From Catajapyx aquilonaris (Eukaryota), in contig KZ538033.1 in the NCBI GenBank assembly GCA_000934665.2, forward strand, positions 1 through 64,000: a stretch of DNA of 64,000 nt, read 5' to 3'. The position numbers and the translations under genes are program-made. This document shows positions 857 through 64,000 of this stretch, piece after piece. Every line of letters starts with the position of its first letter. Position 1 is the stretch's first letter. The notes beneath the pieces were generated by a model. The model did no database searches. It was not told where the DNA came from and saw nothing but the letters and a program-made list of their open reading frames with translations.

Positions 857-1501
857 TTCCGCGCTGAGTACGGTTGCAATGAGCGCACTACGGAGAGTTT
901 TTTCCGTAGTGGGACCTGTGAACGTCGGATGCACTGTTCGCCAGATAAAAAATCGAATGTGGGCTGATGCACCCGAATAACATGCATTTGCCTATGTCCC
1001 GGGTCGGTGAAGCCGACGGTCTACGTCACTCCCCCCCCCGTGGCTTTCTTGGAAGGGGTGGGCTCAGAGATTAGCCCTTTTGGGCGGGTGGAAAACAGGT
1101 CTCGTGGACCCTCCATATACTGTGCTTGGATGACTCAAGGCTCCGTGAAATTTTCCACCAACATGTTTCACTACATCATCACCAGTTACCCTTGACGTGG
1201 TGCTAATCACTTGTGAAGGAAAATTGTGTCAGCTCATCATAGCTTTTAGACACAACTGGACTTCATAAATCATATCTTAAAGTTCTCATGGATTTAAATA
1301 ATTTTACTGCCACAATTATGATGCAGGTAAAAATAGCGAAGCAAATCCTCATGACATCTAGTCTCCAACTTTGGAAGTAGGATGGAAATGAGGCTTGTCC
1401 CTATAGTGGCTCAGAAATCTCCCTGCCAATACTGTATTGTTTAAGCGCTTAGTTTAATTTGGGGGAAAAAGAAACTTTTGTAAAAATGAAAGCATACGCA
1501 C

Positions 1502-1658
1502 TTGTAATCTCCTGTTTCGAAAGTGTGCTGTGGGCAGGTGGCATAACACTTGCCCTCGAATAGCACCAGGTTGTGGTCACAGCTCGTACAATGGTCAGGC
1601 TCTCCCTCGCAACTGCCGCACAAGGATGCACAGGATATGCACTGCTTCTTCTCAGAAT
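1502..1658 (-). CDS. Fur2: Fur2 exon with a furin-like Cys-rich repeat ([27 protein letters not shown]...[11 protein letters not shown])
   Basis: Acceptor gtcacag|AT; donor AA|gtgcgt, with an alternative TGC|gtatgc that would end the exon at 1498. Confidence 0.9.
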
Positions 1659-4600
1659 CTGTGACATGGAAATTAAAATTATTAGTACAATGATTTGAAA
1701 AATTCTTCATTCTGAATGACATTTGTGTCCATTAGTAACCAAAGATCTGTGCTATCAAATATTTGCATATAAATTTTTTAACATCCAAACTGCACCAATT
1801 TTTGGTATGTGGTAATACACAGAGTAGATATCCACTTTTGTATGCAATAAACTGATTTCCTAAGTAGCGGAAATCAACTTGCGTTTGAATCTCAAGGCTT
1901 GTTGCTTCCCATTGACATGTTAACCCTTAACTACGTAGGTGGGTGAAACACCTTTAACTACGTAGGTGGAGCCTGAGAGGCTCCAACGGTATATTTAAAT
2001 TTATGCTAATCAACTAAATTGTTATATTGGACTTTTCACATACAGAAAGTGCAGTTCAGATCATTAGGCTTCCGATAACGTAAAAATCACACGCTGAGTC
2101 AGCATATTCCGACAGGAAAAAATTCTTAATTAAAAGGTTACATCATGCTTGAGACGCTCAGTCTTCACCTGCATAGGTAGAGCCAGTATAGAGTCCAGGA
2201 GGGACCTGTTCCTCGTTACGAATTTTTTTAAACCAAACAATAGGGACTAAAAAAAAATTTCTTTCCTTTTCATGCTTAGGAAGGTTTGTCTGACAAAGTC
2301 ACGGAAGGACAGGGGAAAATAAAATTCGATGAAAAAGTTACATGCGTTTAAATAGTGCTTGGAGCCTCTCAGGCTCCACCTACGTAGTTAAGGGTTAAGA
2401 GTGTCCTTCTGAGTTGAAGGATCATATTGTACCCAATCAGTCTTGCAAAAATAATATTACTACCTTGGAAATATCCCTGCGGACACTCTTGCATGCAGAT
2501 GGACATGTCTGTAACCATCAGGTATGACTCGATGCACTCCAGACAGTCAGCTATTCCAGGGCCAACACACATCTGGCAGGTCTCGTGGCAAGGAACGCAA
2601 GTCTTGTAGTGGTCGGTGAAGGTGCCCCGAGGACATTCCGACACACATGTGCTGAAATTAATTCAATGTAATCTCAAGCTGGCACTTTTTAAACAAGACT
2701 CAAGCCGATTTCAAGTGCTAATATTCTTCAAACTTGGTACAAGTCTAGTTACATGCAGTAGTCCAATCTCAATAGCATCAGAGAAACTATATTTTGTTAT
2801 AATATTATTATTAATTTAACTGCCGTAACAAATACTACCTGTGGCAGAGTTGCTCTATTATAAAAATAGGTCTGCACAAATAAAGTTATGCAATGAAATT
2901 ACAAAGAATGTGGTCACGTTCATGCTGGATTCAAGGACCATTATGGACAGGTTCAATGTGGGACTATTTATTTTGAAAAAATATTTTATATTTTCCTGAC
3001 TTCACTGCCAGATTATTATGACTAAAACTTTTAAATGTATCCTTCTAAGAGATTCATGGACAGAAGTCTATCATGCGCATCTGAAGTAAGACATTTTTGC
3101 CTCCTCAACATGGTCCAACTCAGCCAACGCACAACGTACCCGTTCATCTTGTAGTTCTTGCATCCCCGGCACAAGGAAGCACCGGTTCCATAGCAGCCTC
3201 GTTGGCACTCTTGGTGACAGCCCTCGTACAGCACCTCTTTCCCATAGTTGGGGTCCTCCTCTTCTTTGGGTGGTTGCCTTGTCACTGCATTTGGCGACAT
3301 AACACTCTCCTGCACTTGACTACCAGAAAACGTGAACAGATTTGAGAAGTCATGGAAGTTGCTGTTGGATCTGTAGCCAGGACTAGATGAAAGCAAGCCG
3401 CCCAATCCAGAGGCCTGTGTTGGGGGTGGTCTCGATGCCCCGAGAGACTTGGCAGCTAGTGGCGATGATGACGGGAACCCACCATTGCCATTGGTGCGAC
3501 TCCTGAGTCGCACAGGATTTGTGTCGCTGCCATATAATATCAACTGCCACTTCTTGAGAACTCCTGGCTGGTTAATCCGCCTGGATCCTGAGTTTATAAT
3601 CTCCAAGGTCCATCTACCCTCAGCCCGCTCCCCCCAGAAATGGACACTCAAAAATGGCCACTCATCAAAATTGGAACTAATGACATCCCTAGGTCGCTCA
3701 AACAGCAGAATGGACGTGGTGCCCATTGGGGAGGTGAGCAGAATCCGGAGATTGCCACGGGGGAAGAAACGAAGTGAAATCTTGCACTGGACATGCTCGA
3801 GGAAGCGAACCTCATTCATGGTTCCAGCACATCCATCCAGGTCCATGTATACCTTGAGTTTGTCGTTGTTCATGCCAGGTATCACTCTGTAAGACAAAAC
3901 AAACCACATGAAATATGCATAGACTTTCATCATCTAATAGCAACACAGCATCTCTTTGGGGGCATTAGGGGAGCCGCACAAATCTCTGGTTTGTTTTATA
4001 CTTCAATCATGAATTAACTGCTTCGGGCACTCAGATACTGACGTACGTCTCTTGGTTGATTAATTAAAATTATGTACGTAGGGTGTTTCGTGGGTGGAAC
4101 AACCCTTTGAATAATATGCCACACTTTATGCCCAGTGGGGATTGGTTGTGATTTTAATTTCTCAGATACCGTGATACCGGTACGACATAACTTGCCTCTC
4201 CTCAGTGATTTCCTGTGACTTGCAAATATGTTGCGGAGGGACAGTGATCCACTGCTCAGCCAGTGACACCATTCCTTCTGCATCCATCAGGCCATACCCA
4301 AACTTGTGACTCACTGAAACAACAGAAACACAACGTCAGTATTGCAACTGTCTTGCTCCACATTGCGGAGACCAACCTTTCCTGCTGACACCGTTCATAG
4401 TCCATCCTCCTTCTTTGTCCAGTGGGTCAGGCCGGGAACTCATGACCACCAGGTACTGCATGTCCCTCCAGGTCAGGTCTGGGTTGGCCTCCAGTGCCAA
4501 GGCGCAAATTCCGGCAGCTAGAGGAGCAGAAGCTGACGTCCCTGCAAATTGTACAATGCAATTAGTACTTTATGCTCATTGAAATGATCTCAACAAATAC

Positions 4601-7325
4601 AAATTTACGAACCAGGTTGGTCCACATTCGCAAACCAGAGTGTACAACTTATACAACACGAATGCGACCCAATATCATACATTATAATACTAATCATTAA
4701 TCACGTGACCACTAATTAGAGTAAATGAAATGGGCTAATGAACCGGGAGCGCGCGACCACTAATATTTTAACCGGCATGTTGTGAGCCCCTGACACAAAC
4801 GGTTATTGTTTGTGGCACATAAATATTAACAGGAATTGATGCCCTTTTTTCTCTCTGCCAGCCATCAACTTACAAGCAGCATTGCAGGATGACAAAAGCA
4901 CGTCAATTTCAACTGCAATTCGGTCATTAGCAGCTCGTCACATCAAATATAATTAAGCTTTATATTTTGATGCATATATTAACTAGTAAATAATACTTTT
5001 CAGATTATATGAACACAATGTTTCAGCAGGGTCTAGTTTTCTCCAGTTATACAGTGATCGGATTAACTTCAAAATTAGCGTATTTATTTTAATTAATCGA
5101 TCACACCTAATTAAATCCATTCCACTTTATACAATTAATTAAATTTATTTCCATCCCATTGACTTACCCACACTCGTTCAATATTCAGTGAAATAATTGA
5201 TTTCAATTCTTTTCACATTATTGTTGGGACTTATATCTTCCAGACTCACACAGAATTACAATGAACAAAATCTGATAAAAACGAGTACCATACTTCAGTA
5301 ATGACTCAGTAATTTTTAATGTCTTTCGATGAGCTGGTCTTGCCCTGCAAGGTCATTCGATTCTTCTCCATTCAACTATAATTCGCTTCAACTGGTCATT
5401 CGTGCCAATCAATTAATCATTCATTCGTCAATCACTTCCCATTATATCCATTCATTCGTATCCATTTTCCTTAATTTTTCAACGAACTGACATGCATTCC
5501 GTTCTACTCGTTTCGCCAATATGGCCAATTTCGCGAATTCTATTCTGGTGCTTGTCAATGGAGTGTCCAAAATATTTATAGGCCTGCTGTTTTGCTTCTA
5601 AAATGTTCATGCAGAATAAATTGAGGGCTTCAAACTCGTTAGTCCCCGTAAATTCCCACCCTCAGCAACACCTTCTGGACACGAAAATTGCATCGCGGCC
5701 ACACCTTATTCCCCCTGAGGTGGATGGCCACTTTAAACTTTTCGAGCTCTCGCAGGACACACGGACACACACAGGATGCACTTTGCGAATTAATCGCAAC
5801 ATCCTGCTCTCTACGTATAGGTACCTGTGTGCTCCACAGTGCAGATGTGATCCGGCCTCAATTTCCCGTCCATGTCAACCGTGGCCACACTTTTGTCGTG
5901 TCCGGGAGTACCGGAACTGTAAGTCGTGGCCAGTGTGGACGAGCATTCCTCCAAGTACCACGGCTTTTGTCTGAAAATAAATGAAACTGGTCATGCTCAC
6001 AATTCACTGATTCGCCCACAGGAAACAGCAAAAAGTTTCGTCCCGTTGTGTCACTCATGCGAGTTGTGCGGGTACCAGCCTACACTTAATTATGCACAGT
6101 GCAGAGTACATGTTAATGTAATTACTTAGAAACTAACGTTCACTTCACGCTCTGTTTTTCTATGTACCTATATATAATACCAGTGAGAATTAATTCCGCG
6201 CTTGTTTCTGGCATAACATGGCGAGAGAAAATGCTTACCCTCCTTGAGTAGCACTGGAAATTGACAAAGTGAAGATGGAGTTGGTGTAACCATCGCAGTT
6301 GCAGTTGTCCGTGTGTCGACCTCCATTTCCAGACGCCCACACAAAAATGGAGCCTTTGCCCTTCCGTCCCTGCAAAGAACAACAAGAAAATGGTCAGTTC
6401 CGAATCGGAGTGGTGGAATCCTTTAATACATTTGCACAATTGCAAGTCCCAGAGGGGTGGGTGTGGGGAGAAGAAGCCAAGTCAAGGTCTGAAAGGAATC
6501 CTTAAGACGCAATTTCCAAAGCCCCAAAGGTGCTGCCGACTCTTTTCTTCAAGCCAAGCTCTTACAGTCCACAACCTCAATCCTCTTGGGAGTTCAGCAC
6601 ACACGACGCATGCTCCCAAAAATAAAGGGTCGTCAGCCAGAAAAGAGAGACCATGAATTTTCGGCCATCCCCCCCACCCTTTATATATATAAAAAAAATA
6701 GTCCAGGATGAAGGCAGATCTTTCATCCTGAGGGAGTAAAAAAAGAGAGAGAACCGGCTCTCAGTTCTCCCAAAAAGTAGGCTGTCATCGAATGAGGCTT
6801 CTCTATTACGTCAGAGGGTGCAATTAGTAGAGGCTCGGAACATTCGCCCAACATTACTCGTCCGTGGTAGTCGAGTAAATCAAGTTGGAGGAATGGGTGC
6901 CAAGGCAGCAAACTTGCAAAGAAAATGGGAGAAGAGCTGGGAGGTGCCAGGGAAAGAACGGACCGGATTAAAACCTTTCAATTGCCGGGACTGCACATAC
7001 CCACAAATAAAACGCCAAAGAAAAGAAGGAACAGTTCCATAGACTTACAGCACCTCAATAATAAATAACCATCCTATTATTACTCCAGGAGATAAGACGT
7101 GCCTGCCTGCATTAGAGGGTCTCAGAAGGTTTTTCGCCATGTAAAAAAAAGGAACGTCTTCTCCGCAATGAATCTCCATCAATCCGGACCGTAACTAAAA
7201 GCCGAGCTGGATGGGAGATGCTATCTTAAATCGTAACAAATTCGAAGTGGTAAGGACATTCTTTGCATTTTTAACCCGCGCACTTTATTTATTCACAGGC
7301 GCGACTTCGATCGCTACAAGGAGCG

Positions 7326-7373
<48 letters not shown>

Positions 7374-10300
7374 AATTTTTTTGGAGGGGGAAAAAATGTG
7401 TTGAACAGACACTACTTAATGAGATATTTTATGCAGTACTTTACAGAGTGTACGACTGTAGCTATAGGAGTGTATATTAAAGCATAATTTGCACCAAAAG
7501 CTTATGGCTTTTCCCCAAGAAACGCAAGTCAGAATCAATCATTCGTGACATTTAATTCGGCTGTGCGACAGTTTCTAAAAGCGAAGACTACGCAGAGAAG
7601 ACTTGAGGGGTAGGGGAATTAATAGTCAAGCGCTTTCCCCTAAAATAAATCACTCTAAAAACACATCTCCCAGAATGAAAAGTTGGGTACGCCCCTGGAG
7701 CCATCCTCCGCATCAGGGCTAACTTTTTAAATTCGAGTGCAAGGATGATGGAAAGTTGCAAGTTTTTTTTTTTTGCTTTTTTTGCAGAGAAAGAGAGCGA
7801 AAAGGGAGGAGCTGTTGGGAGAAAGCAAAAGGTTGCAAGTTTGCTGGGAGGGTTCGTTTCCTTTTCCAACCCTAGAGGCCATGGGGATTGCATTCCCTTT
7901 GATTTCCTACCAAACACCGCAACACTTTCGTGCCAAATGCGGAACGTCCCACAGGGCAATAACTATACCACTATTTTTTTGAAAAAAAAAAAAAGAGGTT
8001 ACAACATCACCTGGTTTTGAAAACGCGCCAGATCGGAAAATTGCTCATCTGATGCTAATTGCAGAGCAAACAAGCTCCGACCCTGAGGCCTTACAGAACA
8101 TTCCCCTGTGGGCGACACATAGTATTATTTACAGTATCACTAATGCATGCTGATGTGTACAGAAACCTTACGCAATGCACATATCAATTTTTGATGGCCC
8201 CGAGTGCCCAAGAATGGATTCCATTTTCGAGCCAAATGGAAAAACCACGTGAAAGTGAGATCAACCTGCTTTCTTATCCGGTGAGAATGAGAGTCCATGT
8301 AATAACCTCCGGAAAAAAGATCGCATTGTGTGTAGGCGACAAAGGAAAAGTGACATTGTCGGACGCTTCTTCTCTTTTTTTTCAAAAAAAGGGGGTATCA
8401 CCACACGGTCGCCTTTGATTAGTTGGCAAAACAATCGTGACGCCAACCTAATTACTGGAGGCCGCTTTTGCAATTACTTCGGTCAGCCCTAATCCTGCCC
8501 GTTCACTGAGCTTACATTTGGTTCACCGGAGGGTTGTTACTCGTTAAACCCACAGTCGAGCACATTCTTCAACCTGAAGTTTACAGTGATGTACGATGCT
8601 CCCCGACAGCAAGTTTCCTGCAGGACACTTACTTGAGTATATCAGGAGATGCACCCAAAATCGGTTACAGTTCACAAAATAATTTGATCTCGAGTCCACT
8701 CAACATGGCATCGTCGCAAGATTACAGGTCCTGCACGTGTAATAATTGGCCCAAAAAAGCAACAGTCCGGACAAAACTCGTATAAAGCGGGGGTAAAAAA
8801 AATCCGAGTTCATACATATCTCAGAAGGTTTCCTAGTTCCAGTACGCGCAGATCAATACCCTAGGAGAGTCTACTTGCTGGCTATGAAACATCCCGCTGA
8901 TGCTGAGTCTGGGCCCTGGGTTTGTTGGGTTGGGTATAAATCTCATGACTCGTGTTCTTCAAGAGAGAAAAAAAAAGAGTCTGCTTACTCTCGCACAAAC
9001 TTCAGTGTCAATATCCTAGGAAGCTTCTCCTTAATGAAGTCGTAAAAAACCCAGTAAATTAACACCGAATATTGCGGGGCCCTCTTTTTCTCTCGAAAAA
9101 ATCTGCCAACCCTTGCACCCTGAAGTGTTTTATTGCATTGTAAACACTACCCGGGCCTGCACATGTAACGCATTCCTTCCATGTCCGTATATGCGATTCC
9201 ACACATTAGTACCCTAGAGAGGTGTTTTTTTTTCGCCAATTTTGTTTATATATGGAGAGTGATTTGGGAGCTGGGGACATCAGCGTGTTATGCTGCTACC
9301 AAGTGGAATGTCCGGCATAAATGGGTCCCGACTGCGTGTTAATACCGAGGCGCCACTTGCAAAAACACAATTGTGGCCTGGCTGCATGCACCCAACTCCC
9401 CTCCTGGTATCGTCACAGAGACGGACTGATGGAGCGCCACCAATTAGCGAAATTGACACCTATTACACTCTATTACGGGGGCAAGCCGGTAAATGCTGCT
9501 GGAGGGCGACGGGGCACACACACACACAAAAAAACAAAGTGCCACAAATTAACAGGTAATAGAAACAATAAAAGGTAAAATCGCCTTACCGCACCAGTTG
9601 GCTTATTTTGAGGAGAAACTGCTTGGATGCCAATCCTGGTTTAAATTGAGTCAAAACCGCCTTTAAAGATTCAATTTTAGTGGGATGAAACGTGCTGGAG
9701 TGACAAGAAGATATGAGCATAATGAAACATGTTTTTTTGTCGCCCCGAAAAAATGCTGACGAAGCCAAGTGTTGAGACAGAGCTCATTAATCCTATCAAA
9801 GAACTGAACGACCCGCCCTTCAATTTTTGCTGTGGTCCGCGTAAATCTCTTCATTGGCTTGCTATAACCCTTCCCCAGTAGCTGCAAAAACCTGCACCGT
9901 CATATGCTTAAATTCCCAAATCAAACCCAAAGCACATTTTTGGACAGAGCAGGCAAATTTTAGCTAATAACGAGATTAACTGTTAATGTTACAATATCAG
10001 CTTAACACAAGTCCGTTCTTACAGATTTTTAAAAATGAGAAAATGTCAACTCAATACTGAGTTCAAAAATCCAGAGGTCACGACCCAACATCGAGTTCTA
10101 CCCTATAAACAACTTGTAATCAGGCCAATTACCCATCTCTAATCTGCACCACCCAGTATAAAGCTCCCAGGATTAGAGTTCAAAATTGTCCCGAAACTCT
10201 TGCAATATTTTTTCTGACCTCTCCTGTAGAATCGGAATTTCAACACGCACTCAGGAAAGTGCAATATTATAGAGCTCTCACCATTTTCATCTTTTCTCCG

Positions 10301-13300
10301 GTACAGTTTCCGGGGTTTTCGAGACGTGGACGGCATCATCCGGATAAAGGTGCAGAAGGGGAAGGCTTGTTGCTCTCGGGGCTTTGAGTTAAATCACAGC
10401 GAGAGAACGGAAGCATTCAAATGGAGTTTGAATATCAAGCCGGTTTGTGCGGCTTAGTTTCCCCGGCTTACCTGTATTTTACTTATTTCTAGGAAACGTA
10501 GGGGGAGGGCTGGAGGGAAACACTATAGAGCCTTTCTGAGTAGGCCGACCCCGTACATGATATTCCTCTTAGCAGCCGAAAGGTGTCCCCGGATTGGTCT
10601 TGCAAAAGTGACGTCGTCGGCCCGGTCCTTTCGGATGCAAAATGGTGCTCTACCCAACTCCATTAGGCCGAGGCCACCAGCCGAAGCTTCTGATTCGAAT
10701 ATTAAAGAGGCTTCCCCACCCAAGCCCGCCATGGGTTTTTTTTTCTCCTTGAATAAAAAAAGCCAGGGTTGCCGGTGCGTGGTAAATAAGATTATAAATC
10801 ACTTAAGTATCACTCTGTCGGGGCGATACATGACTGCGATTGAGTCTTGGAGGAAGCACAAAAAAGGCGCAGGCGAAAGATGGTCCGGAATGGACCTTGC
10901 TGGAGTGCTGCTTGTTCCTCGAGGTGTGCTCCCCATAAAAAGGGCGTTAATGTAACGAGGCCCCTCTTTTGTCCCGGCATTACTCAAGTTGTAAAATGAT
11001 GGCTTCAGCCGGCGGAGCAGCCAAGGGAGAGATCCGGGAATTGGCGCCTTTATTGCTCCTGGTTTTCAATACCACTCGCACACTACGACCATCCCCTCTG
11101 CTTCCATCTAGAAATTAAACCTGGCCGGTCCCCTCCATTTGATTCATTCCCGAAAAAAAACGGGCAACAACTCACTCTGTCCGGAAAAAAATGTCACACC
11201 AGGCTGTTTACGCCATCAAATCCGGATAAAAACACAAATTAATTACAACAATTTTCATCCTGCCTGTGGATTCGTCCAGACTGCTGAAAGATCGCTTTTC
11301 TCCTGCAGGTCTATTGGACTGAGGCCTATATGGGAACAAAGAGGTAGAGCCCTTTTCCAGCTATAGCCTTTATACAGAGAGGTGCATACTGCTGTAACTG
11401 TCCGGGATGAATAATGGGGGTCATTAACGCCCCCAACCCTTCCGATTATTTAGTCGGTTCCTAATGTAAGAGCTAAAACTGAATGAGTCACACGGATATG
11501 GCCTACGTGAAGGGGGAGGGCTCCAGACCTCCAAATTAAAATGCACTATAGTAATTCACCCGATTTTTTTTGCGCAGTCAGTCTGCAAACGTTGCAAGTG
11601 CGCCATACACTCGCACATAGAACTAAAAAAAAAGAGAGTATGCTACAGTATAATACTTGGGAGACATCAGCTTAAGCCTCCAATTTATTCGCCAAATTTC
11701 AATCCTATTACATCAGATTTGCAGCCATAACGGCTTGGTAATATTCTAGGTTTAATCCGGATTCTCGAAGAGGGACAATAGGTTTTCTTCCTTCAATCTA
11801 CGTTGATTGTTCCGGTTGTACTCGGCATGCAAAAGGTGTGATTCAACTCTCCTCCTTGCTGCAAGAGGCAGCAAAGCTATCGGAAAAGGAAGCTCTTGGT
11901 GGGGGTGGTGGACGGCTTGATTTCCAATACTACCCGACGTCGACACAGACCTGAGGAGTCAATAGGAACCGGGGAGTAACCCCCTCCTTCCCTCCCTCAA
12001 GAAAAGGAAAAGAAGAAGAAGCGAACCTCACGATCGCTTCACAAACAAAAGGGGGAGATTGGAGGCACAGGCCAAGCCAGGGGCTGACCAAGGAGAAGAT
12101 ACAGAGTGGTACGGCCAGGCTGTTGTCATAGGAAGAAAAAAAAAAATAGAGAGAAAAAAAGGGACGAGCGATTCCATCGCCTGCCACACGTCCTACAACC
12201 ACTCAGACACATTACGGAGTGGAATGACCTCCCAGAGGCATAGGAATGCGGATCGGATTCAGATACAATGGCAAATCCTCGTCCCAATAACGGATTCTCG
12301 TGTGTGGATCTCCATGGGGGATCCCCGCTGCCTGATGTTGAGGGACGCAGAAAAGAAAATTGCATTTCTTTCGATTTGGTTCAATGACTCTCCATCCCTG
12401 CGAAGATATAGGAAGCCTTTTCCCCAAGATTTTGACTTGTGCGCTGCGGATGATGCAAGGATGTCATTTCAAGCATTGCCTCAAAGTTTGAATTGCGGCA
12501 AAAGCTTTGGTTTGTATTTAGGTGGCACTCCAATGGGGTACTTACTAATAAGCAGAAATGATGGGGGCAGAAAGTAACGATTTTCCAGTCTGAAGCACTT
12601 TAGATCCATTACTCAACTTTGCCAACTTCACATTGCGTGCTTTGCCGCACTTGAAGCGCCTGTTGGAGCTGTTACTTAATGCACGGTGGGAAGGAAATTC
12701 GCACACAATTATTGCGGTTCTTTTTGCGGTCTAGAGCCACAAAACCAGAAGAAGAAAACAAAAAACCCATCCCACACATTTCCACCACACCCTTTTGTCT
12801 TCGGCCTCGATATGTCCGCCAAACGGTTATAAATATGCGAGGAACGGAAAGAAAATTGCAACGTCAACCGGTTTTCCCAAACTAAATGGACTCTGCACTT
12901 TTTCTTGGCTGGTCGGGCCATAAAGCCTCGCAGTGTGAAAATGAGTAGGATTGTTCTCAAAACTATTGGATGACAGTTTGGTAACCCTGCAAGGCTTGTG
13001 TAGGGCCCAGAAAAACGGGGAGGTTTTCTCCCCAAAAAAGAGAAGAAAAGAAAGGGGGGGGGGGGGNGGGGGGTCTGCTGGCACATCCCCAAGAGCAGTT
13101 TCGCACATCAAGGCCTCGGACTCGGGGGTGGCAAAGGCGAAGCCCCATGTGAAACAGACTATCGCGGCTGTTTAGGGACATTAGGAAGCCTTGGCACCAA
13201 GCTGACGTTCCCTTTTATTGGAACGATGCATTTCCATTTGAGCTCAAGCCACGGCTGCTTCCGAATGATCCCATGGCGCTAGTATTTCTTCAGAGCCTGA

Positions 13301-16300
13301 GTGTGCCGTGGGGGTGAAAAGACACGTACCTTGAATTTTCGTGGGGGCCAAAGTGGCAACCCAGCTCCAATCAGCATTAGCGTCCGGATGACGTGTGGAC
13401 TGTCGATTGGTCTGGAAGTTGGGAGAAGCGGTGTTGCCGCGTATATTCTGCCCGTGTTTCAAAAAAGTATTCAAAAATATTCAGGGTGGTGTGACTCTGG
13501 CAGATTTGTTATATTATACGGCTTGTCCCAATGCATTTTTGTCAGCTCTTGAGTGCTTGGAGAGACCAAGACCTTTCGAGGAATTGACCATCTCGCGTGC
13601 GCCAGACCCGTTCATTTTCTGGCCGTCGATGCCATTTTCTCCCGTCAGCACAGCTCCGGTTTCTTGGCAGTGCATCAGAGTACGAGGAAAAAGATTACGT
13701 CACCTAATCGGGTCATAACCCAAGCCAGATGCCCGTTATAGTCTCTCTTTTTTTGCTTGTTAAGTAGCCATCTTTTCTGCTGTATTCAAGATGCTGGTAC
13801 TGGGTAAGAGTCGAAGCGCCTGTTTATGGTTAGTGGAGTTTAATATTTCATTGAAATTAAAATAAAATGAGAGAGATGCCTTTTAAGTAGTGCTCTTGAC
13901 ACGTAAAGAGTGGCCTACAGTTTGCACAATCACCAGGGGAGTTGTAAAACCATGAATAACAGTCACGAAAATGCCCCCTTTTGCTATTAATTTACATGCA
14001 AAATGTGTACAGAGAGAGTGAAAATGAGCTACATTATGGCCAGCATTATTAAGTCCAATTAAGGGAGAAATCTCAAGTGACTGCATGTACATAATCGAAT
14101 CTATTCATTTATTTGGTAATGCCCAAATGAGTGTTGTTAAAACTGCATCCATTTTTTAAAATGCAGTGAAAATGATGACTATAACATAATTCTGCAAACT
14201 CAAGAGACTATGTAAGGGCCATGTATTAGGGAACAAAATATCAATAAAGATGTTACAATCATAATGTGCTTTCATATTCAACGCGCCCTTAAACGATTAA
14301 AAATCTAATCACCAAATTTCTGCAATTGACTTGTAAATAGCCCCATTCTGATTTTAACTGTATACAGTATTAATTTACAATACTGAAAATAAAACGGAAT
14401 AAAAATCAAAACTCGGCGCAATGATATAAATAGTGCCATTGGATCGCAAAATTCATTGCTCGGCTCCACATCCAGCAGCCAATTGCAAACAGGATAAGGC
14501 GGAGTCGTTAGTCTCCGAGTTTGGAGACACACAAGAGCTCCCCTCCAAAATGTATCGCAAGCCCACATGTGGAGTGCGTAAGCGGGCATATTATACCAAC
14601 TTATCTCCGGGGCAGGGGCATCCATGGGGTGGTTAAAAAAGTCCCATTTCCGAGGTCCACCTGCCTCGGTTCACTTTGATTCATAACCTCATCCACACGG
14701 GCTCGAAACCGAACTGCTCTATAGGCCTCGACTACGACATGAATAATTCACGATTTCGATAGCGAATGACTCTAATAAAACTGACATGCCACGGGGATCA
14801 AAGAAGTGCATGAAAAATGACCTGCAATTTTTTTACTCTCTCCTTTCCCTTGCGCAGAATGTGCATACCGCGTATCGAGTGGTACTTACGTTGGTAATTC
14901 CGTAAATGAAAGCTCGACGTGCAAGCGGTCCTGGTCCATCAACCGTCTTTCCGTCGTCTTCAGGTCCCCACGATGCGCTGTACACATCCACGTGGTCAGG
15001 GTTCAAACCCAGAGCCCTCGCCTCAACCGCATCATTCACGGTCCCATCCAGCATCCGAACACCTGCGAAAATAAATGGCGTTAAAATTGTTTCTGTAATG
15101 TTCTCGCTGCTTACAAGCCCGAAAAGCATCTCCTTACTACAAACCATGGGTTTTTTGCGGCCACAACTTTCTCAGCCGGCAGATGGCGAGGGGCTATCAG
15201 CTGCGGCCAAGAGATCTCCTCTCTGGCCCTGGGTATAATCAGGGTAATGGATTGCCCTGCCACCTGCCCCGGTCAGAAGTGTGCTGGCTGGAAAAAGCCG
15301 CTTTTAACCTGACCTTAAAGTGCAGATGCCGCTGCAAAGTTTCCCGGAAGAAAAGGCACACAGGTAAACGACTTCTTTCTTGCCATTCCCAAGTTATTTT
15401 CTCAAAAGACACCCGGTACGAACTTGCCTCCTAAACGTCTTTTAAGCGATTCGCTAGTTGCAATATGTGGGCATACAAGTTAAATCCAAGCACACTCCGG
15501 AGTAACCCAACTTATTACCTCGTTTCTAGGCCACATCCTGCAATATTGTATGGATATAAAGCAGCCCTGAAAATGATCAGAAATAAGGTTACTCCTGCAG
15601 CTTCCAACAATCTTCTCGAGCGCTCATTTTTCACAGCGACCAGCCTTCAAATGGAAATCGCTCGATACAGAGAAGATTGTTTTTTTTTCCCTATCTCTCT
15701 CTCTTTCTCTTCGCCCAAAGAGCAGCCTAAGACATTCATCTTCCTGGCAACTTATTTCGCCCCGTCCTTTTTTTTATTTCTGGAAAGATGAGTTAAAGCG
15801 GTACAGGGTGTGTAAGTACTGTACAACTATAGTGTGTGTACCTATATCCAGCAGGATATAAACATCCCGAGGCAGTTGCGAGTTGGTGTAGGAGCAGACT
15901 GGAGGCAATTTTGGCCTCTTTTTTCTCCCAAGGAAAATGTTGGCGCTCTTCAAGTGGCCTCATTTGGCCCATCCGCGCCCCCTCCCCTTTTCGGATCCCA
16001 GTGATGATTGCACCAGCCTATTCCTTCATGGCTGGGAAGAGGATGGTGGGGAGGGAAGGAGAAGTTTAGATCCCGCCGTCAGCTTGGCTTATGGCTGCAA
16101 ACACTTTCTTCATGGGAATAATCAGCGCGACCAGCCCACAACAAGGCGGCTAAACAGCTTCATTCCCGGAAAATTCCGGGCACCAAACTACAGGCACTTC
16201 AAACCGCGGTTTTATTTGAAGGGGAAAAAATCGCGACTCGCCATTTTCCCATTTCTTACAGCGGGCGGTCTGCATATTTCGGTAAAACTTTCATCAATTA

Positions 16301-18738
16301 AAATTACGTATTTACACGCTTTTCGAGAACATACACCAATAGTCAATAGGCTAATTACGGATATTTGAAAATTACTAATTACGCAACGATTTTTGAAGCG
16401 CTTATTTATATTTTCAGACATAACACTAGTCGTTATAGCGTATGTGGAATTACACCAGTCTGATGAGAGGAAAATATTTGCTCTCGCAGAACGACAACAC
16501 CTGCACCGCAATAATAACCGGGGCCTAGAGCACTTATGTAGATATGATCTCAATTCCAACAGTACAGTGAGTCTTATCTGATTAGCAAGTACCAGCACAG
16601 CGAAAAGGCAGTAAACAGTCATTACATAGATAACTTATACACAAACCAGAAAAGCATACACCTGTCTTGTCTACATTTATATCACTGTACAGCACACAGG
16701 TTGGTGCATTATTAAATGCAATTATTTTGTGAAGCTAAACAATGTGGTGAATGTTTGCTTTTCTTTAAACTATAAGGTATAGCAAAAGTAGTGCTTGTTC
16801 CTTAGCAAAAATATCAATAGTAAACGACCTATTTAATATTCCAAAACTGCTTCCGAAGCCCTCGAGCTATCACCTAAACCTGAATAAATTCGTGATCTGA
16901 CCACTGGTCCATTCAGCTGCTGATTAATCAAATTACCCTCCACCATATTGCGCAGGAACAAAAAAAAAGAAGTGCGCAATACATAAATTACCAGCAGGCC
17001 CGTGCATGCGATCATAAAAAGAGTGCATACTGTACGTAAATATTTGACTAGACAGGAAGATTGCTCTAGTCGCAAGCCTAGAGAGAGAAGAGAGCCCCGC
17101 TATCCTCTTCTCCCAACTATATACCTACTCTCTCTTTTTTAATTTTTATGCAATTCGCGCTATCTTGTTTAACCAAACGAGCAAAGTTCTCGTTAATGAT
17201 TCATTTCGTTGCATCGTTGGAAGTTTCGAACGTTACGGCGGATTTTTAATTAATGACGAACGCCGCGAGGAGCTTAACTCTTGCAGATACGGAGGACCAG
17301 AAAACCCTGAGAACACTGAGTGTCTGGCGACATTTTCTTTGCGATATATCACCAGAATCGTGCCAATCGTCTCCCGTTTTTTTCTGTTTTTTTTTGGAGG
17401 GCCTTTAGTAGGGTGAGTATTTTCACTTCGAAATAACGCGGATCCAGTACATTTCCTCGCTTGCCTTGCTAACGGAGCCTATTCATTCGGAAAAGAGGCC
17501 TCCTCGTCTCTGTTCTTGCTCCTCAGCACTGCAAATGGTACTTCAGGGTCCATAATGACCCTCCACCTAATGACTAAGGGCCCTCTCCACTTCTTTGCCT
17601 TTTCTCAGGGAACTGCCGACTATTTTTTTGGGGGCCCTCCCTGTGTTTCCAGAAGCTTTTATTTGCATTACCAATATTAACGAGTCTCTGTGGGTGTGAC
17701 GGATAAATTTATCTGGGGGTTTTATATGGCTTTCCTCTTCCACGCCCTAGTCAATATTTATACTGTAAGGAAGTGCCTGCTGCCTTCATTTTCTGTACAT
17801 GTTGCATTGTTTCAGGTCTGCCAGCGATATAGGCCTCGCAATTAATTTTATGGCAAATTTCACGCAAGAATTATAGTGATTAGCTCGGAACCGGGTCAGC
17901 CCTTTTTTGCGGATTGTATGAGTTTCACATCATTATTTAGGTAACCTTCACTCCAGTCGTAATCCGGTTTCAACAATAGAGATGAGGCAGATGCAAACTT
18001 TGCATTATCCCTTTTGCCTTAATGAAGTAGGCCTATCGACTCGGCGAGAAAGGATATTATGTTCTATTGTGGAGAAGCGGTCTTTTTCATTATCGTTCCC
18101 AACCGCCCCCTTTTGTCGTTTCCCCAGCATCGAAAATTATAGACTGAGCGTGACTTACGAGCCAAGTTGGCTCGAAAGTTGCGCCAAGCACACGGAGAAT
18201 ATTTAACACAACAGACATCGATATAAACTGGTGCTGGGGAAAGGGGGGGCATGAAGCGTTGCAAAAGGGGATTGGTGGAGGGTTACCTTTGACGCAAATG
18301 ATTCAGCCCAACCTTTGATCGCTAATGAAGTCGAGGATATTGGAATTAGCAAAGTTAGAGCCTCGCAGGCATTAATCAATTGCCAAAACCTATCGTACGC
18401 ATTATAAGGATTAATAATTTCTCTCCGTGACATTAAACTGCAGTCCTCTGCCCTCCTGGTAATTACAGGTTAATATCTGGCGGTGGACGCTAAATAGGCC
18501 GCAGATATGGATGGATTTATTAGAGCAATTAGAGGACGGTATATAGCGACTCGGGGTCTGGAAGGGCCATAAACTCACCTCCTATGCTGGCGTTGTAAGC
18601 GACACCGACGCCGCAGAAGCCGTTGAAGGCCACTCCGGCCACTTCTCCTGCGCATCGGGTGCCGTGCTTGTTGTCGCCGTTGTCTCGAGGCATCGGGTCC
18701 TCGTCGTTGTCGTTGATGTCCGTGCTGGCCAGCGAATC
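1502..18738 (-). CDS. Fur2: Furin-like protease 2 (proprotein convertase, S8B), partial spliced CDS: join of 18579-18738, 14890-15062, 6239-6369, 5825-5970, 4377-4541, 4196-4313, 3140-3886, 2464-2651, 1502-1658; both ends lie outside the window
   Basis: Manual splicing gives one continuous frame with matching phases (1,0,2,1,1,2,2,1). It contains [34 protein letters not shown], the P-domain LEHVQC...PRGNL and CxxCxxxC repeats. Motifs such as [22 protein letters not shown] and [17 protein letters not shown] match my recollection of arthropod Fur2 rather than Fur1. Confidence 0.93.
1924..2394. mobile_element. Non-autonomous piggyBac-type MITE (471 bp) in a Fur2 intron
   Basis: TTAA at 1920-1923 and 2395-2398; 19-bp TIR CCCTTAACTACGTAGGTGG / CCACCTACGTAGTTAAGGG; internal inverted repeat with GGAGCCTGAGAGGCTCC palindrome; no transposase ORF. 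Confidence 0.9.
2464..2651 (-). CDS. Fur2: Fur2 exon with furin-like Cys-rich repeats ([11 protein letters not shown]...[11 protein letters not shown])
   Basis: Acceptor aatttcag|C, donor CAAG|gtagta; 188 nt, phase 2 to 1. Confidence 0.93.
3140..3886 (-). CDS. Fur2: Fur2 exon: P domain, Ser/Gly/Pro-rich linker and first Cys-rich repeat
   Basis: Core of ORF 3031..3933; acceptor tgtcttacag|A, donor GG|gtacgt; 747 nt, phase 2 to 2; [18 protein letters not shown] and [11 protein letters not shown] motifs. Confidence 0.95.
4196..4313 (-). CDS. Fur2: Fur2 exon at the end of the catalytic domain ([39 protein letters not shown])
   Basis: Follows a 63-nt intron; acceptor tgtttcag|TG; non-canonical donor GAG|gcaagt; 118 nt, phase 1 to 2. 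Confidence 0.92.
4377..4541 (-). CDS. Fur2: Fur2 exon with catalytic Ser ([33 protein letters not shown]...NGVSRK)
   Basis: Acceptor atttgcag|GG, donor AAAG|gttggt; 165 nt, phase 1 to 1. Confidence 0.96.
5825..5970 (-). CDS. Fur2: Fur2 exon ([48 protein letters not shown])
   Basis: Acceptor ttattttcag|A, donor ACAG|gtacct; 146 nt, phase 2 to 1. Confidence 0.95.
6239..6369 (-). CDS. Fur2: Fur2 exon with oxyanion-hole Asn ([43 protein letters not shown])
   Basis: Acceptor ttctttgcag|GGA, donor GG|gtaagc; 131 nt, phase 0 to 2. Confidence 0.96.
7330..7371. repeat. (GA)n microsatellite
   Basis: About 20 perfect units. Confidence 0.97.
13054..13073. repeat. Poly-G run with an ambiguous base (n at 13067)
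   Basis: Seen directly; run length may be poorly resolved in the assembly. Confidence 0.9.
14890..15062 (-). CDS. Fur2: Fur2 catalytic-domain exon (GVRMLDG...[31 protein letters not shown])
   Basis: Acceptor tttattttcgcag|GT, donor AAC|gtaagt; 173 nt, phase 1 to 0. Confidence 0.96.
18579..18738 (-). CDS. Fur2: Fur2 exon with catalytic His ([53 protein letters not shown])
   Basis: Acceptor ttttgtgcag|GAT, donor GGAG|gtgagt; 160 nt, phase 0 to 1. Confidence 0.96.
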
Positions 18739-36159: not shown

Positions 36160-38336
36160 AACCCAGGACACCCTGAGGAGTAGCGTTGTGAAAAATTCAG
36201 TTGGGTGGTGATGACAGTTCAGAAGAAGAAAAAGAAAGAAAGATGTGGGTGGTAGCCCACCGGAAACATGGTGTCCGTACTGTCACGAACGGGACAAAAG
36301 GTCACAAAACGTACCCCCAGCCGTGTACCGCTTCTCTCCGAATATTGCATCACCGCGAGGGGGCCCCATGGAACAAAAGACTCTCTTTTGACTCAGAAAA
36401 AGGGCAAAAGGGCGCTCAGTTTTTTGTGTGTTTGGACCAAGAAAAAAGTTTCTGCCAGAGAGAAAAAAAAGGCGAGGATCGAAACAATACGGCTGCAGTC
36501 CCCTCCTCTTTTCACCAAAAACTTGGAACATTCGAACTAAGGATAATCCCAAGGTTTCTTTTTTTGTTGTTGTTGCTTAACGTACTATTTTGTTTTCAGC
36601 CCCAGATGTAGGAATGGCTTAGAAAAGTTCCCAATTAGGAGACTGGGCTCATCTTGGTTTTACAGCTCGTGGCAGCGAGGAGTCCAGAGAAAAAAGCCCC
36701 TGCCGTGTATGTAACTAGGCGACCAGAAGAGGCATGAGGGTTGCGCTGAATAGTCAGGATAAACCATTTGTAATTGAGAAAGATGTCACACGTGCATCGG
36801 CAAATACAGCGAGAGAATTAAGCGGATGGATGAAGTGGGTGGTCGGTAACATTTAGCAGAGGGAAGGGTGACATGCCGCATACCCACTGCCAACACATGG
36901 CACTGGAATGACCAATGAATACCAGCCCCCCCAGTAGCGTGGTGTTCCATTATTTACACGTTACGTCAAGCTATCAAGCCGGGCTAGCAATCCAATTTTG
37001 TGCCTTTACGGAATCAAGCCGTTACATATTAGCCCACGCCCTTATATATGGCTCTTCGCGGAACATGCCTGGTCTAAAAACCCTAATCATTTATGGCAAT
37101 CGCGGTGCTGCAGGAAGAGCCATCAATCCGCTCATTAGGAAGCGGGGAATGCGAATTCTAAACGCGACAAATGATGCTGATGACCGGCGCTCACGATTCG
37201 GAAAAGTGAAATGTGGTTCACACCTGTAGTTCCGGAGAGACTACACAATGGTCGCTGCCAGACACACTTGTCAACGAGCTGGTTAGCCTGTCACTGCGTG
37301 CGAAAAGTAACCGCTAACTGAACAGAAAAAAAGGAGCTGATTGGAACAAAATGTCAATTCTCACGTGCTTAAAAATAATCAGGAAGAGCTATAATATGCA
37401 ATTACATATTTGCATAATATCTACCTTGTTTGTCATTTTTTTGCAGGGTGAGAAGTATTTCACATTTTGCGCAGTTTTGCAACCTTCTCTCATTCGGCGT
37501 GGTCCATGGCGCGGAGATAATCTCGCTCGCTGCACGCCTAGCAATACAACACTGCGTAAATTAAATCCGACACAAGTTCGAGTTCTAAGCAAACCCGCTT
37601 AATGTTGAACGGTCCAGTTATCTGCTAGGGAGGGGAGGGTTACCAAAAAAAAGGAGTTGAAGGGGGGGTTTGGGGATGGGGGACATTGTTCTAGTTCTGG
37701 AAACAGAGGGTATCTGTAGCGGCTGCCCGCAGCCTGCAAGCTGCTCCACCTGATTTTCCGCTGCGTCGGGTCTCAATCGATGCAAGCAGCTGTTTTCCGG
37801 AGACTATTCGCCAAACCTATCAAGGAGGCGCATCTGGACTTTGCAACACGAGGCAAACCGCATTTTCGCCAATTCAGACTGCCTCCAAATGTATCGCAAA
37901 ACCGCGCTTGCGGTTGAATATGCGGTTGAAGCAAAAGATGTCGACGTTACGTGTCACACCCACATATGCACGATTTCTCGCGAGGATATTTTTTTTGTTT
38001 TACTCCCCCCAAAAAGGGCACATTTATTGGCTTGTTTATGACCGGAGCGTGGTTCATTTTCGCCACATCTAATGCTCTTTGCGTTGCGTTTTCCACCTTG
38101 CAAATTACTGCGCTCGTTCCAAACCACTGCATTTATCGTGATTATGTGCTGCAGCGAATTTTTTTCCCCCCCAACCAACCGGCGCATTTGATCTTCCCGT
38201 GAATACACAGAGCTTGTTTTCCCAGTGCGTGTTCCTCAATTTAACAAGGCTTAATGCGATTTTACTCCGCGCCCATAATTTCAAAAACTCACAATCCGAA
38301 AGCGAGGTACGGCCTATTAGTGATCAATAAAGTGTA

Positions 38337-38426
38337 CATTACCGCAGCACTTTGACGATTTCGAACGCCCAGCGCGACCAGTCTGAACACTTACCTGCAA
38401 AGAGAGAAATTAATGCGCTTTTAGTA
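38337..38426 (-). promoter_or_regulatory. Candidate recursive splice site (junction 38395/38394) with a 52-nt cryptic exon
   Basis: Minus strand: TACTAAAagcgcattaaTTTCTCTCTTTGCAG|GTAAGT, then a second donor GCG|GTAATG 52 nt downstream. Confidence 0.75.
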
Positions 38427-40014: not shown

Positions 40015-40223
40015 AAAATAGCAGGAATCGCTGCTATTATGAACAATAGGTACAGAAATCGCTGCGATTTTAACAGAAGGTAACAGATATCGCTGCTATT
40101 TTGAACAACAGTAACATAATTCACTGCTACGTTAACTACCGGTAACAGAAAATCACTGTTATGTTAACTGACCGTCACAGAAATCACTTCTACGTTAACT
40201 AGCGGTAACATAAATCGCTGCTA
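40015..40223. repeat. Degenerate minisatellite, about 7 units of 30-32 bp
   Basis: Consensus approximately AACWRNNGGTAACAGAAATCRCTGCTAYKTT, head to tail. Confidence 0.88.
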
Positions 40224-43200
40224 GTCAGAAATAGCTCTTTTGCCCGTCCGACAACGACTATAGTCGCAATTTACTATCCTTTCTATGTAATGCTTTAAAT
40301 ATTGCGAATGCAGGGGCCTCCCTTATGGCATCTGGGCTTGGAGATGGAGCAATCTACAAATGGCAAGACATTTCCGTAAAATCATTTTCCCTGCAGCCAT
40401 GTCTGCCAGAATCCATTTTTATATAGCGTATGAAGAAATGGGGGAAGGAACTAAGTTCACAAAACGCACTTCCTTGCTTTAGAATGCATCTACGGATTGT
40501 GAAGACGGCTCCGGGGTCAGCTCTAGAAAATAAAACCGACTCCATCCAAGCAAGAGGGCTCGGCAGTTGGAAAGAGCACCACCTCGACCTCACTTCCATT
40601 CCGACATTTGCTGAATATATGCATCAGACTGATGATACTGTATTTGCCTAAGCTTCCTCTTCCTCTTTTTTTTTCTAATTGAGAACATAACACTGCAACA
40701 TGCTTAAGCATGCATGAGAACCCGTCTCTTTTCCGATGACTTCTCCTGGCGATGCGTGACTAAATAACCTCCTTTGTATTCAGCCCCGTGGCGTCTAAAT
40801 GGATTTTGAAACACCTCACCCGAGGAAACTAACGCACCGGTACCCATAAGTTAGCATATATCAGCAATAAAATTTATGCTGACTTTCCAAAGCCGGTTCG
40901 CACTTGGCCAAGTATATGGGGAGAAACTTATACCGGCGGAATAATTTTCCCTATAAGGAAACTTGGTGGGGTCCCTGCAGTCGCTGACTGTTATCCTCTG
41001 GCTTCCTTTTGCACCATGGTATGCAGGCTTACTTAATTACGTCGTGGGGGCTTTCTGGACGGCCGGGTATGGATGGGCAACTCCGGAAATTCGGCTCCGC
41101 AAGCAGGACAAGCGTAAAGAAGGCCCCTCCGGAGATAGCGCCGACTTGTTGGGAATGCAAGGCGCGGACTCGATGCCCGCCGTCCCTTTTTATCGCCGTG
41201 TTTTATGTCCCGGGGATGAAATGGTTCCATCCATTCCGACCACCAGGAACAAACAATTGCTTTCCAACTGGCGCATACCATGCATCAAATACATGTGTAT
41301 AAGGACCCGGGGTCTCAGAGCTCAAACAGACGGAAACGATCCGGAATGTGACGAGACACCCAGTGTTCCCAGCAGAATCCGCTCACGTTCATAAAAATAA
41401 CTGCTAATTTTGAACACAGCATGTTTGAACAACTGCTACGTTTGACACTAGCATGAATGGATAACCGCACAATATCACATAACTATCACTGCTAATATGA
41501 CAGTAGCAGATAATAATCCCTGTTAATTTGGCAATAGCGGATAATAATCACTATTATTTTTTGAATAAGCTGTATGTAGGGGGGTCGAAAATCGCGGTTT
41601 TTGCTCAGACTTGCTCGAGTCGTTCTTATTCGCCTGTGCCTGGAGGACAGAGCACACATTTGGCGGCAGGTTAAATCCGAGGAGTAGCCTGCAGCGAGCG
41701 GCGCATCGATTGATCCGTTAGCACTCTTCAGCTTACGCAGCAGAGAAGTGGGAATCAAACGCTGAAGGCGTCCCATTATTTCCCAGGGAGGGAAAGAAAA
41801 AAAAGAGGGGGGGGGGGAGAGGAGGAGAGAATGGGAAGGGAGGAGGAAGGGTGCAGTTTCCACGGCCACAATTTCCAACATTTCAAATGCAGACAGCATT
41901 TTCCCGCAGCGTAGATTGCATCAGAAGTTGAGTGGGCCTTGGCAACAAGCAAAGAGGTGACTAAACATGTCAAGTTTTGCGCAGATACATCGTCTGGATC
42001 AGAACCCCCCCCCCGCTCGAGACAATCGCCCCAAAAACTTCTTTTTTTGTGTGTGTGTGAAACGAAAACCCAAGATCGAAGTTCAAATAGCTGAAAGAAA
42101 AGTTACTTTCCACAAAAGAAAACTTCAAACTTTATAAACGTTGCCGAAATGTTCGTTTTTTTCACAGACTTCTTGTCCCGCAATGTGAACATTCTGACAT
42201 CAAAAAAAGCCAAACATGTCACACTTTCAGGCTGTAGTTTAGCGGTACAAATAACCGCCAACACACAGTGGCATGCGTATGATGAACCCTGCTGACCACA
42301 AATAAATGAACTGGCTGCCCTCCGAAAATTTATCACCTGCGGAGTCAATCGATTGTGCGACAAACCAACCCTGCATGTAATTGGAATATTCCAAGGGGTT
42401 TGATATTACCCCAGCAGTGACGTTGCAGCTTCAAGAAAGATGCAGCCAACCAGTAGATATTCCGTTCCGTTGGAGATAAATGAGGTCTGTCCTGCGCCAG
42501 GCATCGGCTAATTTGAAACTCTTGATTCTAATTGCAGCATGCTGCCTATTATTCAGGACGAGCTAGAAGCCATTAGAATATCGTCGGAGGCCTCGGGGGC
42601 ACCAAGTGCTGAAGGCAGTTATATATTGCGGTAGGGTGAGCCCCAACCAAAGCCAAGCGTCCCGTTCATTCCTAAAAGTATTATGTACTGCATTATTCAT
42701 CCACGTGGATTTGCATCAAAAAAACAAGGCCGTGCCCAGGAGAGATAGAGAAAAAACCTTGTTCTTAACAAATTCTTTAGTAAAAAGTGGGTGAAGATCC
42801 AACCCGACCAGAATTTTAAAAAAAGAGTGGAATGCGACAATCAAGTAAACTTGTTTCCGCGCTAATAACCTCATAAAACTTGCACTGGGATTGTGTCCCG
42901 CGAGACCCACATTTTCTTGTCCTCTACTTGACGCAGGAAATGTGCTACGGAGTAGCTTCCAACCCACTATCTCGTGATAAAGAAACAAGAAAAAAGTACT
43001 CGTAGTAGGGAGAACCAAGCCTTTTTCTACCGCCCCCCGTATGCGAAAACTCGCTAAAGAAACACTGTTAGGGCCGGAATAACATCGCTTATCGCATTCA
43101 AATCTTACAAGATTACAGGCTTGCGCAGATGGAAGGAAAAGAGTGAACGCCAATACGGACAGAATTGGGCACATATTGATCAGAATCTTCTACATCATTT

Positions 43201-57097: not shown

Positions 57098-57164
57098 ACT
57101 TACTGTTCGGTGTGTATTAAAGGATGCTTACCTGTAATGAGAGAGAAAAAAATCATGTTAGTCA
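57098..57164 (-). promoter_or_regulatory. Candidate recursive splice site (junction 57132/57131) with a 28-nt cryptic exon
   Basis: Minus strand: TGACTAACatgaTTTTTTTCTCTCTCATTACAG|GTAAGC, then a second donor ACA|GTAAGT 28 nt downstream. Confidence 0.75.
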
Positions 57165-63700: not shown

Positions 63701-64000
63701 GACATCGAATTAGATTAAAATGGCAAAAACAGGATCCTGCCTCCCCAAAAACCGGCCTATCTGTCCGGGGGAACCTGCAAAAAGAGCCGAACCTGTAAAA
63801 CCTGGTAGAAAGATAGCGTTGCGGCCACACAATGGCGCGGTATAAAAACTGCAGGGGCCTCTGTGTCCGGGACTGCAGGCGCGACGGACAAACCAACAGC
63901 TGCAGGCCTTTCCGGGAAAACCCGCACATCCAGCAGGGGGAACTCTCAAAAAACCCAACACACACACTCTTCCAACTAGGGCTATACATTATGCCCGCAC

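Follow-up and report, generated by a model that had tools for sequence, protein, structure and literature searches.

A candidate Drosophila-type recursive splice site within an arthropod furin-like protease 2 gene intron of more than 45 kb

Introduction

Apart from Drosophila and a small number of vertebrate genes, there is hardly any experimental proof of recursive splicing. Duff et al. (10.1101/006163) describe 197 fly ratchet points, whose introns measure 11-133 kb with a mean of 45 kb. These ratchet points give intron segments with a mean length of 17,953 bp and a median of 16,368, have branch points mostly at -36 to -21 and carry a TT dinucleotide at positions -6/-5 in 196 of the 197 cases. 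According to Pai et al. 2018 (PMC6110457), most fly introns longer than 40 kb have recursive sites, with strong 5' splice sites enriched on the downstream side of these sites. Joseph et al. 2021 (PMC8605326) describe the short exons that such downstream donors can define, known as RS-exons. These measure about 50 nt and generally break the reading frame; their donor is weaker than that of the ratchet point, and they are skipped through donor competition.

Evidence from other invertebrates consists, in the literature searched here, of motif enrichment and a single site in the locust. Shepard et al. 2009 (PMC2773006) compared the ratchet point (RP) motif on the sense and antisense strands of introns longer than 50 kb and found it to be more frequent on the sense strand in the fly (21.7-fold), the mosquito (more than 10-fold), the beetle (8-fold), the bee (4-fold) and the sea urchin (8-fold); the corresponding vertebrate ratio is given as 0.9-1.5. 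Among the literature matches that we examined, the locust NPF1 site (PMC8892266) is the only recursive site of a non-drosophilid arthropod with experimental support. A 2026 preprint on a sequence feature of human recursive splicing concerns the flanks of first introns, which lie outside the DNA considered here.

The present analysis concerns a window of 64,000 nucleotides of Catajapyx aquilonaris (contig KZ538033.1, positions 1 to 64,000), by which the whole stretch of DNA that was analysed is meant. A first-pass annotation had pointed to a putative recursive site on the minus strand at 38395/38394, here called site B. Below, this site is placed in its host gene, compared with a similarly built second one (site A), and measured against chance and against other uses of the same splice signals.

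The host gene and its intron

Very little of the window codes for protein. The host gene lies on the minus strand and encodes a proprotein convertase. A 300-codon open reading frame at 3034-3933 contains the P domain of this family (Pfam PF01483, E 6e-25), and its best relatives are proteins from many insect orders which their sources name furin-like protease 2. A tblastn comparison with ten furin-like protease 2 proteins outlined one minus-strand gene with exons at about 18738, 15062, 6369, 5970, 4560, 3886, 2651 and 1668. The catalytic and P-domain exons share about 80-84% amino-acid identity with the proteins of many insect orders and of a springtail, none of which is closer than the others. 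The first downstream coding exon (18579-18738, minus strand) encodes part of the subtilase catalytic domain, including the residues AYNASIGG, aligns with the proteins of the relatives and follows the acceptor ttttgtgcag/GATTCG (here and below, a slash marks the splice junction). The further exons lie on the same strand within 1486-15069, at the approximate limits given by tblastn: 14890-15062, 6239-6369, 5820-5970, 4189-4560, 3130-3886 with the P domain, 2465-2651 and 1486-1668. The match at 4189-4560 spans 124 codons compared with 103 residues in the relatives, at about 59-68% identity, and an insertion, or a short intron that the mapping missed, probably lies within this "exon".

The exon 18579-18738 must be preceded by one that encodes a highly conserved stretch with the catalytic Asp (..ILDDGIQTNHPDL..NY, or GVVVSILDDGIQTNHPDL..NY). 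This preceding exon is absent from positions 18800-64000, where a comparison of 120 relatives with the DNA gave 15 weak matches (E 0.04-1), none of them to the catalytic-Asp region. The host intron is therefore longer than 45.2 kb, with the upstream exon past the end of the window, and its in-window part runs on the minus strand from 64000 to 18739. We infer from these alignments that this part belongs to one single intron and that the intron is in phase 0. Sites A and B are both on the sense strand of this intron, which they would divide into segments of 18,737 nt (57131-38395) and 19,656 nt (38394-18739), leaving 6.9 kb or more on the upstream side of site A.

For an arthropod intron of such length, 18739-64000 is unusually clean, with no recognisable transposon, protein domain or Rfam family. 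A Pfam scan of 65 open reading frames in the intron (59 of at least 93 aa and 6 of 172-235 aa) gave 0 matches, an Rfam scan of the intron found no family at the gathering score, and the flanks of sites A and B have no repeat copies within the window. This cleanness may point to regulatory content. Two tandem arrays with a period of 31/62 nt, each with about 3 copies and 74-77% matches, lie at 40022-40223 and 41469-41560, at a distance of 1.6-3 kb from site B and, with respect to the gene, on its upstream side.

Site B and its twin at 57132

The elements of site B follow one another on the minus strand in the order expected of a ratchet point. Read directly from the sequence, the stretch is ...TACTAAAAGCGCATTAATTTCTCTCTTTGCAG/GTAAGTGTTCAGAC..., with the junction at 38395/38394. 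A candidate branch-point sequence, TACTAAA, occupies 38426-38420; its putative branch A at 38421, recognised by motif alone, lies at -27 from the acceptor and within the range of -36 to -21 seen for Drosophila ratchet points. A second, closer candidate, TTAAT (38413-38409), has its A at -16. The 3' splice site (38395-38409) consists of the uninterrupted 11-nt pyrimidine run TTTCTCTCTTT at 38409-38399 and a following GCAG, with the acceptor AG at 38396-38395, and it is abutted by the regenerated 5' splice site GTAAGTGT at 38387-38394, of which GTAAGT covers 38394-38389. The first-pass annotation, which had described TACTAAA and an acceptor fused to a GTAAGT donor on the minus strand, had placed all of these elements correctly.

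Both halves of the site are strong. The acceptor has TT at -6/-5 and pyrimidines at 13 of the 16 positions from -20 to -5, and it equals or exceeds in strength five of the six mapped acceptors of the host gene, which have 9-14 pyrimidines out of 16. The donor GTAAGTGT scores 7/7 on the simple consensus MAG/GTRAGT, is the strongest donor nearby and presumably can pair with the 5' end of U1 at all positions from +1 to +8, one G-U pair included. The site as a whole, TCTCTTTGCAG/GTAAGT, has no mismatch to the ratchet consensus (Y)nNCAG/GTAAGT. As judged from its sequence, site B agrees with a Drosophila-type ratchet point in its core, its TT dinucleotide and pyrimidine tract, its place on the sense strand of a long intron and the presence of a weaker donor downstream, and it has a candidate branch point at a fitting distance. 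A metagenome scan for orthologous DNA with the exact 26-mer across the junction returned 0 loci.

A second candidate ratchet point of the same build, site A, lies 18.7 kb further upstream at 57098-57163 on the minus strand. Here GACTAAC is followed by TTTTTTTCTCTCTCATTACAG/GTAAGCAT with the junction at 57132/57131; in fuller upstream context the site reads GACTAACATGATTTTTTTCTCTCTCATTACAG/GTAAGCAT, which gives CAG/GTAAGC at the junction. Pyrimidines fill 15 of the 16 positions, again no fewer than in five of the six mapped acceptors of the gene, TT again stands at -6/-5, and the candidate branch A at 57158 is at -27, so that both sites have a CTAA-type motif with its A at exactly the same distance from the acceptor. 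A downstream donor, ACA/GTAAGT, would close a candidate exon of 28 nt (57131-57104). At site A the core of this downstream donor (GTAAGT) at least equals the regenerated one (GTAAGC), and the rule of donor competition is less clear there than at site B.

When all AG/GT sites on both strands were scanned, the two that stood out were those at 38395 and 57132, both of them on the minus strand and in the host intron. Two weaker minus-strand sites, at 63793 (ttttacag/GTTCGG) and 21806 (gatttacag/GTGACT), combine fair acceptors with poor donors and are probably pseudo-sites.

The cryptic exon downstream of site B

A ratchet point that works by exon definition needs a donor a short distance downstream. 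Every GT downstream of the junction was scored against the seven positions of MAG/GTRAGT, and two candidate exons can be considered for site B. The first, proposed in the first-pass annotation, spans 52 nt (38343-38394, minus strand), is not a multiple of 3 and ends at the donor GCG/GTAATG with its GT at 38342-38341. Its coordinates and length agree with the sequence, and the accompanying statement that cryptic exons of about this size go with Drosophila ratchet points is borne out by PMC8605326 (about 50 nt, generally out of frame). As evidence, however, the 52-nt exon does not hold: its donor scores 3/7, and 89% of intron positions have an equal or better donor 20-110 nt downstream, so that GCG/GTAATG is at chance level and is ruled out as support for a 52-nt RS-exon. 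The second candidate spans 102 nt (38293-38394, minus strand) and ends at ATT/GTGAGT, with its GT at 38292-38291 and a score of 5/7. It has a perfect GTRAGT core, which is found 20-110 nt downstream at only 3.9% of intron positions, and the 102-nt end is therefore the better candidate. As a perfect GTRAGT core occurs within 110 nt downstream of both site A and site B, the downstream donor called for by exon definition does seem, on the sequence, to be present in both cases.

Inclusion of either exon is predicted to truncate the protease ahead of the catalytic His and Ser. Provided that the intron is in phase 0, translation into the 102-nt exon would meet an in-frame TAA at codon 26. The 52-nt exon would throw what follows out of frame, and translation would first meet a stop at codon 81, which lies 28 nt into the exon 15062-14890.

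In a first alternative, the signals are real and in use but serve something other than a ratchet point: site B could bound an expressed alternative exon, such as a regulated poison cassette of 52 or 102 nt that leads to nonsense-mediated decay (NMD), or CAG/GTAAGT could act as a plain donor, either for an alternative first exon or for a separate non-coding transcript that begins within the intron. Taken together these uses are unlikely. The premature stops that both exons carry or cause are what poison exons have, PMC8605326 mentions expressed RS-exons in Drosophila (fewer than 50), and a dual-use site in rat tropomyosin is cited in Shepard et al. 2009 (PMC2773006). Against this, PMC8605326 sets more than 500 intronic ratchet points in flies beside those fewer than 50 expressed RS-exons. 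The ratchet donor (7/7) also outscores both downstream donors (5/7 for GTGAGT at +102 and 3/7 for GTAATG at +52), a relation that in flies predicts skipping of the exon (PMC8605326). As for a plain donor, CAG/GTAAGT does score 7/7 in that role, but the candidate branch point, the pyrimidine tract and the YAG would then be superfluous and are nonetheless all present at two sites about 19 kb apart, and an isoform starting from site B would be made without the signal peptide, the prodomain and the catalytic-Asp exon.

Motif statistics

The other alternative is a chance juxtaposition without function, in which a pyrimidine-rich stretch and a CAG happen to precede GTAAGT. For the core of site B taken by itself, this would be no great coincidence. 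Over both strands of the 64 kb there is a single copy of CAGGTAAGT, with 0.35 expected, and 29 of 100 shuffled sequences had at least one. The 17-mer pattern YYYYYYYNCAGGTAAGT, which includes the pyrimidine tract and was allowed up to one mismatch, has site B as its only match (0.14 expected; at least one in 14 of 100 shuffles). Site B alone is thus only mildly unusual, and it must be borne in mind that the window was picked from about 250,000 and that the site was picked by eye.

The picture differs once the intron is considered as a whole. A composite motif was taken from the Drosophila literature, TT(-6,-5)-N-Y-AG/GT-R-A-G with at least 12 pyrimidines among the 16 positions from -20 to -5, and in the 45.2-kb part of the intron the sense strand has it twice (38395 and 57132), the antisense strand 0 times. 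Shuffled sequences held 0.023 such sites on average; at least one was reached in 23 of 1000 shuffles and two or more in 0 of 1000. These figures are to be read with the reservation that the pyrimidine thresholds were set only after the values of 13 and 15 had been seen, and with a looser cut-off of 10/16 two sites are reached in 3 of 1000 shuffles. Because dinucleotide shuffles break up native pyrimidine tracts and thereby understate chance, a control with natural sites was added, which keeps these tracts and derives the expectation for GTRAG from its local frequency. Of the 22 natural acceptor-like sites on the sense strand, 2 continue directly with GTRAG, where 0.036 would be expected (binomial P 6e-4); the antisense count is 0 of 13.

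Some observations do lean towards chance. The 22 acceptor-like sites on the sense strand imply that pseudo-acceptors are common, and the loosest listing (at least 10 pyrimidines, donor of at least 5/6, whole window) shows little strand difference, with 6 sites on the minus and 3 on the plus strand. They are outweighed by the full-feature sites, two against none, with the shuffle and natural-sequence results just given, and by the number of details that sites A and B have in common, namely the candidate branch A at -27, the TT at -6/-5, the GTRAG core and a GTRAGT within 110 nt, the last being a 3.9% event at each. In addition, the published sense/antisense enrichment of 4-22 fold in large introns of insects, as given in PMC2773006, means that most RP motifs on the sense strand of such introns are not there by chance. 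Site B in its intron context clearly exceeds chance, and a juxtaposition without function is correspondingly improbable.

A model for splicing at site B

The explanation that best fits these results is that site B is a functional intronic ratchet point of the Drosophila type which would normally be spliced out completely; we put the probability of this at roughly two in three. It is preferred because of the motif statistics together with the context, that is, the sense strand, the intron of more than 45 kb, the twin site and the composite count of two against none. The expectation of the first-pass annotation that the regenerated donor should normally win and leave a zero-nucleotide exon is consistent with what can be read from the DNA, in particular the strand, the motif, the twin and the 7/7 donor.

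Under this ratchet model, the acceptor at 38395 would be recognised during transcription jointly with a downstream donor, most likely GTGAGT at 38292 and less likely GTAATG at 38342, whereby a short cryptic RS-exon is defined. What is then joined to 38394 could be the upstream exon itself or, if a first recursive step has taken place at 57132, the product of that step; either way, GTAAGTGT would come to stand directly behind the exon. In competition with the donor of the RS-exon, the regenerated donor would prevail and be joined to the acceptor at 18739/18738, so that the last 19.7 kb of the intron are removed and the mRNA keeps no trace of site B. Should the cryptic exon be retained instead, a premature stop would result with both the 52-nt and the 102-nt version.

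A much wider and rather doubtful extension would be that ratchet points of the fly type are an old device shared across arthropods, complete with the TT at -6/-5, the branch A at about -27 and the short poison RS-exon. Genes of the furin family would, on this view, have retained long, recursively spliced introns regardless of whether the introns themselves are homologous, as in Fur1 of Drosophila and the Fur2 orthologue here. The even spacing might then reflect selection on segments of about 19 kb, and the stop-carrying RS-exon could act as a regulated NMD switch that lowers protease output.

If the model is confirmed by RNA data, an evenly spaced pair of ratchet points in a conserved protease gene would be a handy test of the fly rules outside drosophilids, with the TT dinucleotide, the definition of the RS-exon and donor competition all open to testing there. 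There is also a hazard for annotation, in that gene predictors may wrongly call an exon of 52 or 102 nt at this position.

Comparison with known systems

Sites with the same core as site B, ..CTTTGCAGGTAAGT.., are listed in a table of Pai et al. 2018 (PMC6110457). Five rows of this table belong to FBgn0004509, which is Fur1, a paralogue of the host gene, and are spread over two of its introns. One of the D. melanogaster Fur1 sites (intron 3R:21257703-21298203; PMC6110457) shares the 19-nt core TTCTCTCTTTGCAGGTAAG with site B letter for letter. Most simply, this identity means that both sites match the consensus and does not indicate homology. Homology of introns is not expected between paralogues so old. 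The counterpart of the host gene itself would be Fur2. We take this to be FBgn0004598 in Drosophila. FBgn0004598, the furin linked to P30432 in PMC3411249, has no row in the Drosophila tables of Pai et al. 2018 (PMC6110457).

The closest described system remains the Drosophila ratchet point (Burnette 2005, Duff 2015, Pai 2018; for RS-exons Joseph 2018, 2021). Site B is the same in its core, in the TT dinucleotide, in a branch candidate at about -27, in lying on the sense strand of an intron longer than 40 kb and in segments of about 19 kb; the 18.7 and 19.7 kb found here fit the sizes of Drosophila ratchet segments. As with the RS-exons of Drosophila, there is downstream a short candidate exon that shifts the frame or contains a stop, and its donor is weaker than that of the ratchet point. 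The differences are that the host is not a drosophilid, that the gene is a Fur2 orthologue, that the evidence for site B comes from its DNA and that its RS-exon would be 52 or 102 nt long.

The remaining systems are more distant. The splicing of vertebrate RS-exons (Sibley 2015 and Blazquez 2018, as cited by others) resembles the model proposed here in that exon definition is followed by donor competition and that inclusion gives a poison exon. Vertebrates differ in having no sense enrichment of the strong RP motif (0.9-1.5) and in that most of their RS-exons are expressed, annotated exons, whereas site B has a strong motif of the invertebrate type. The Ubx microexons mI and mII (Hatton 1998, known here as cited by others) are short exons that likewise begin with a regenerated 5' splice site, but they are expressed, keep the frame and encode isoforms, while both candidate exons at site B would truncate the protease. 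The locust NPF1 site (PMC8892266) is, like site B, that of a non-drosophilid arthropod and lies in a very long intron, the 230-kb intron 2. It was predicted with the Burnette matrices and has support from U2AF65 immunoprecipitation, in which it differs from site B with its evidence from sequence. In itself, site B is what one would expect to find in an arthropod intron of this length, and it calls for no new mechanism.
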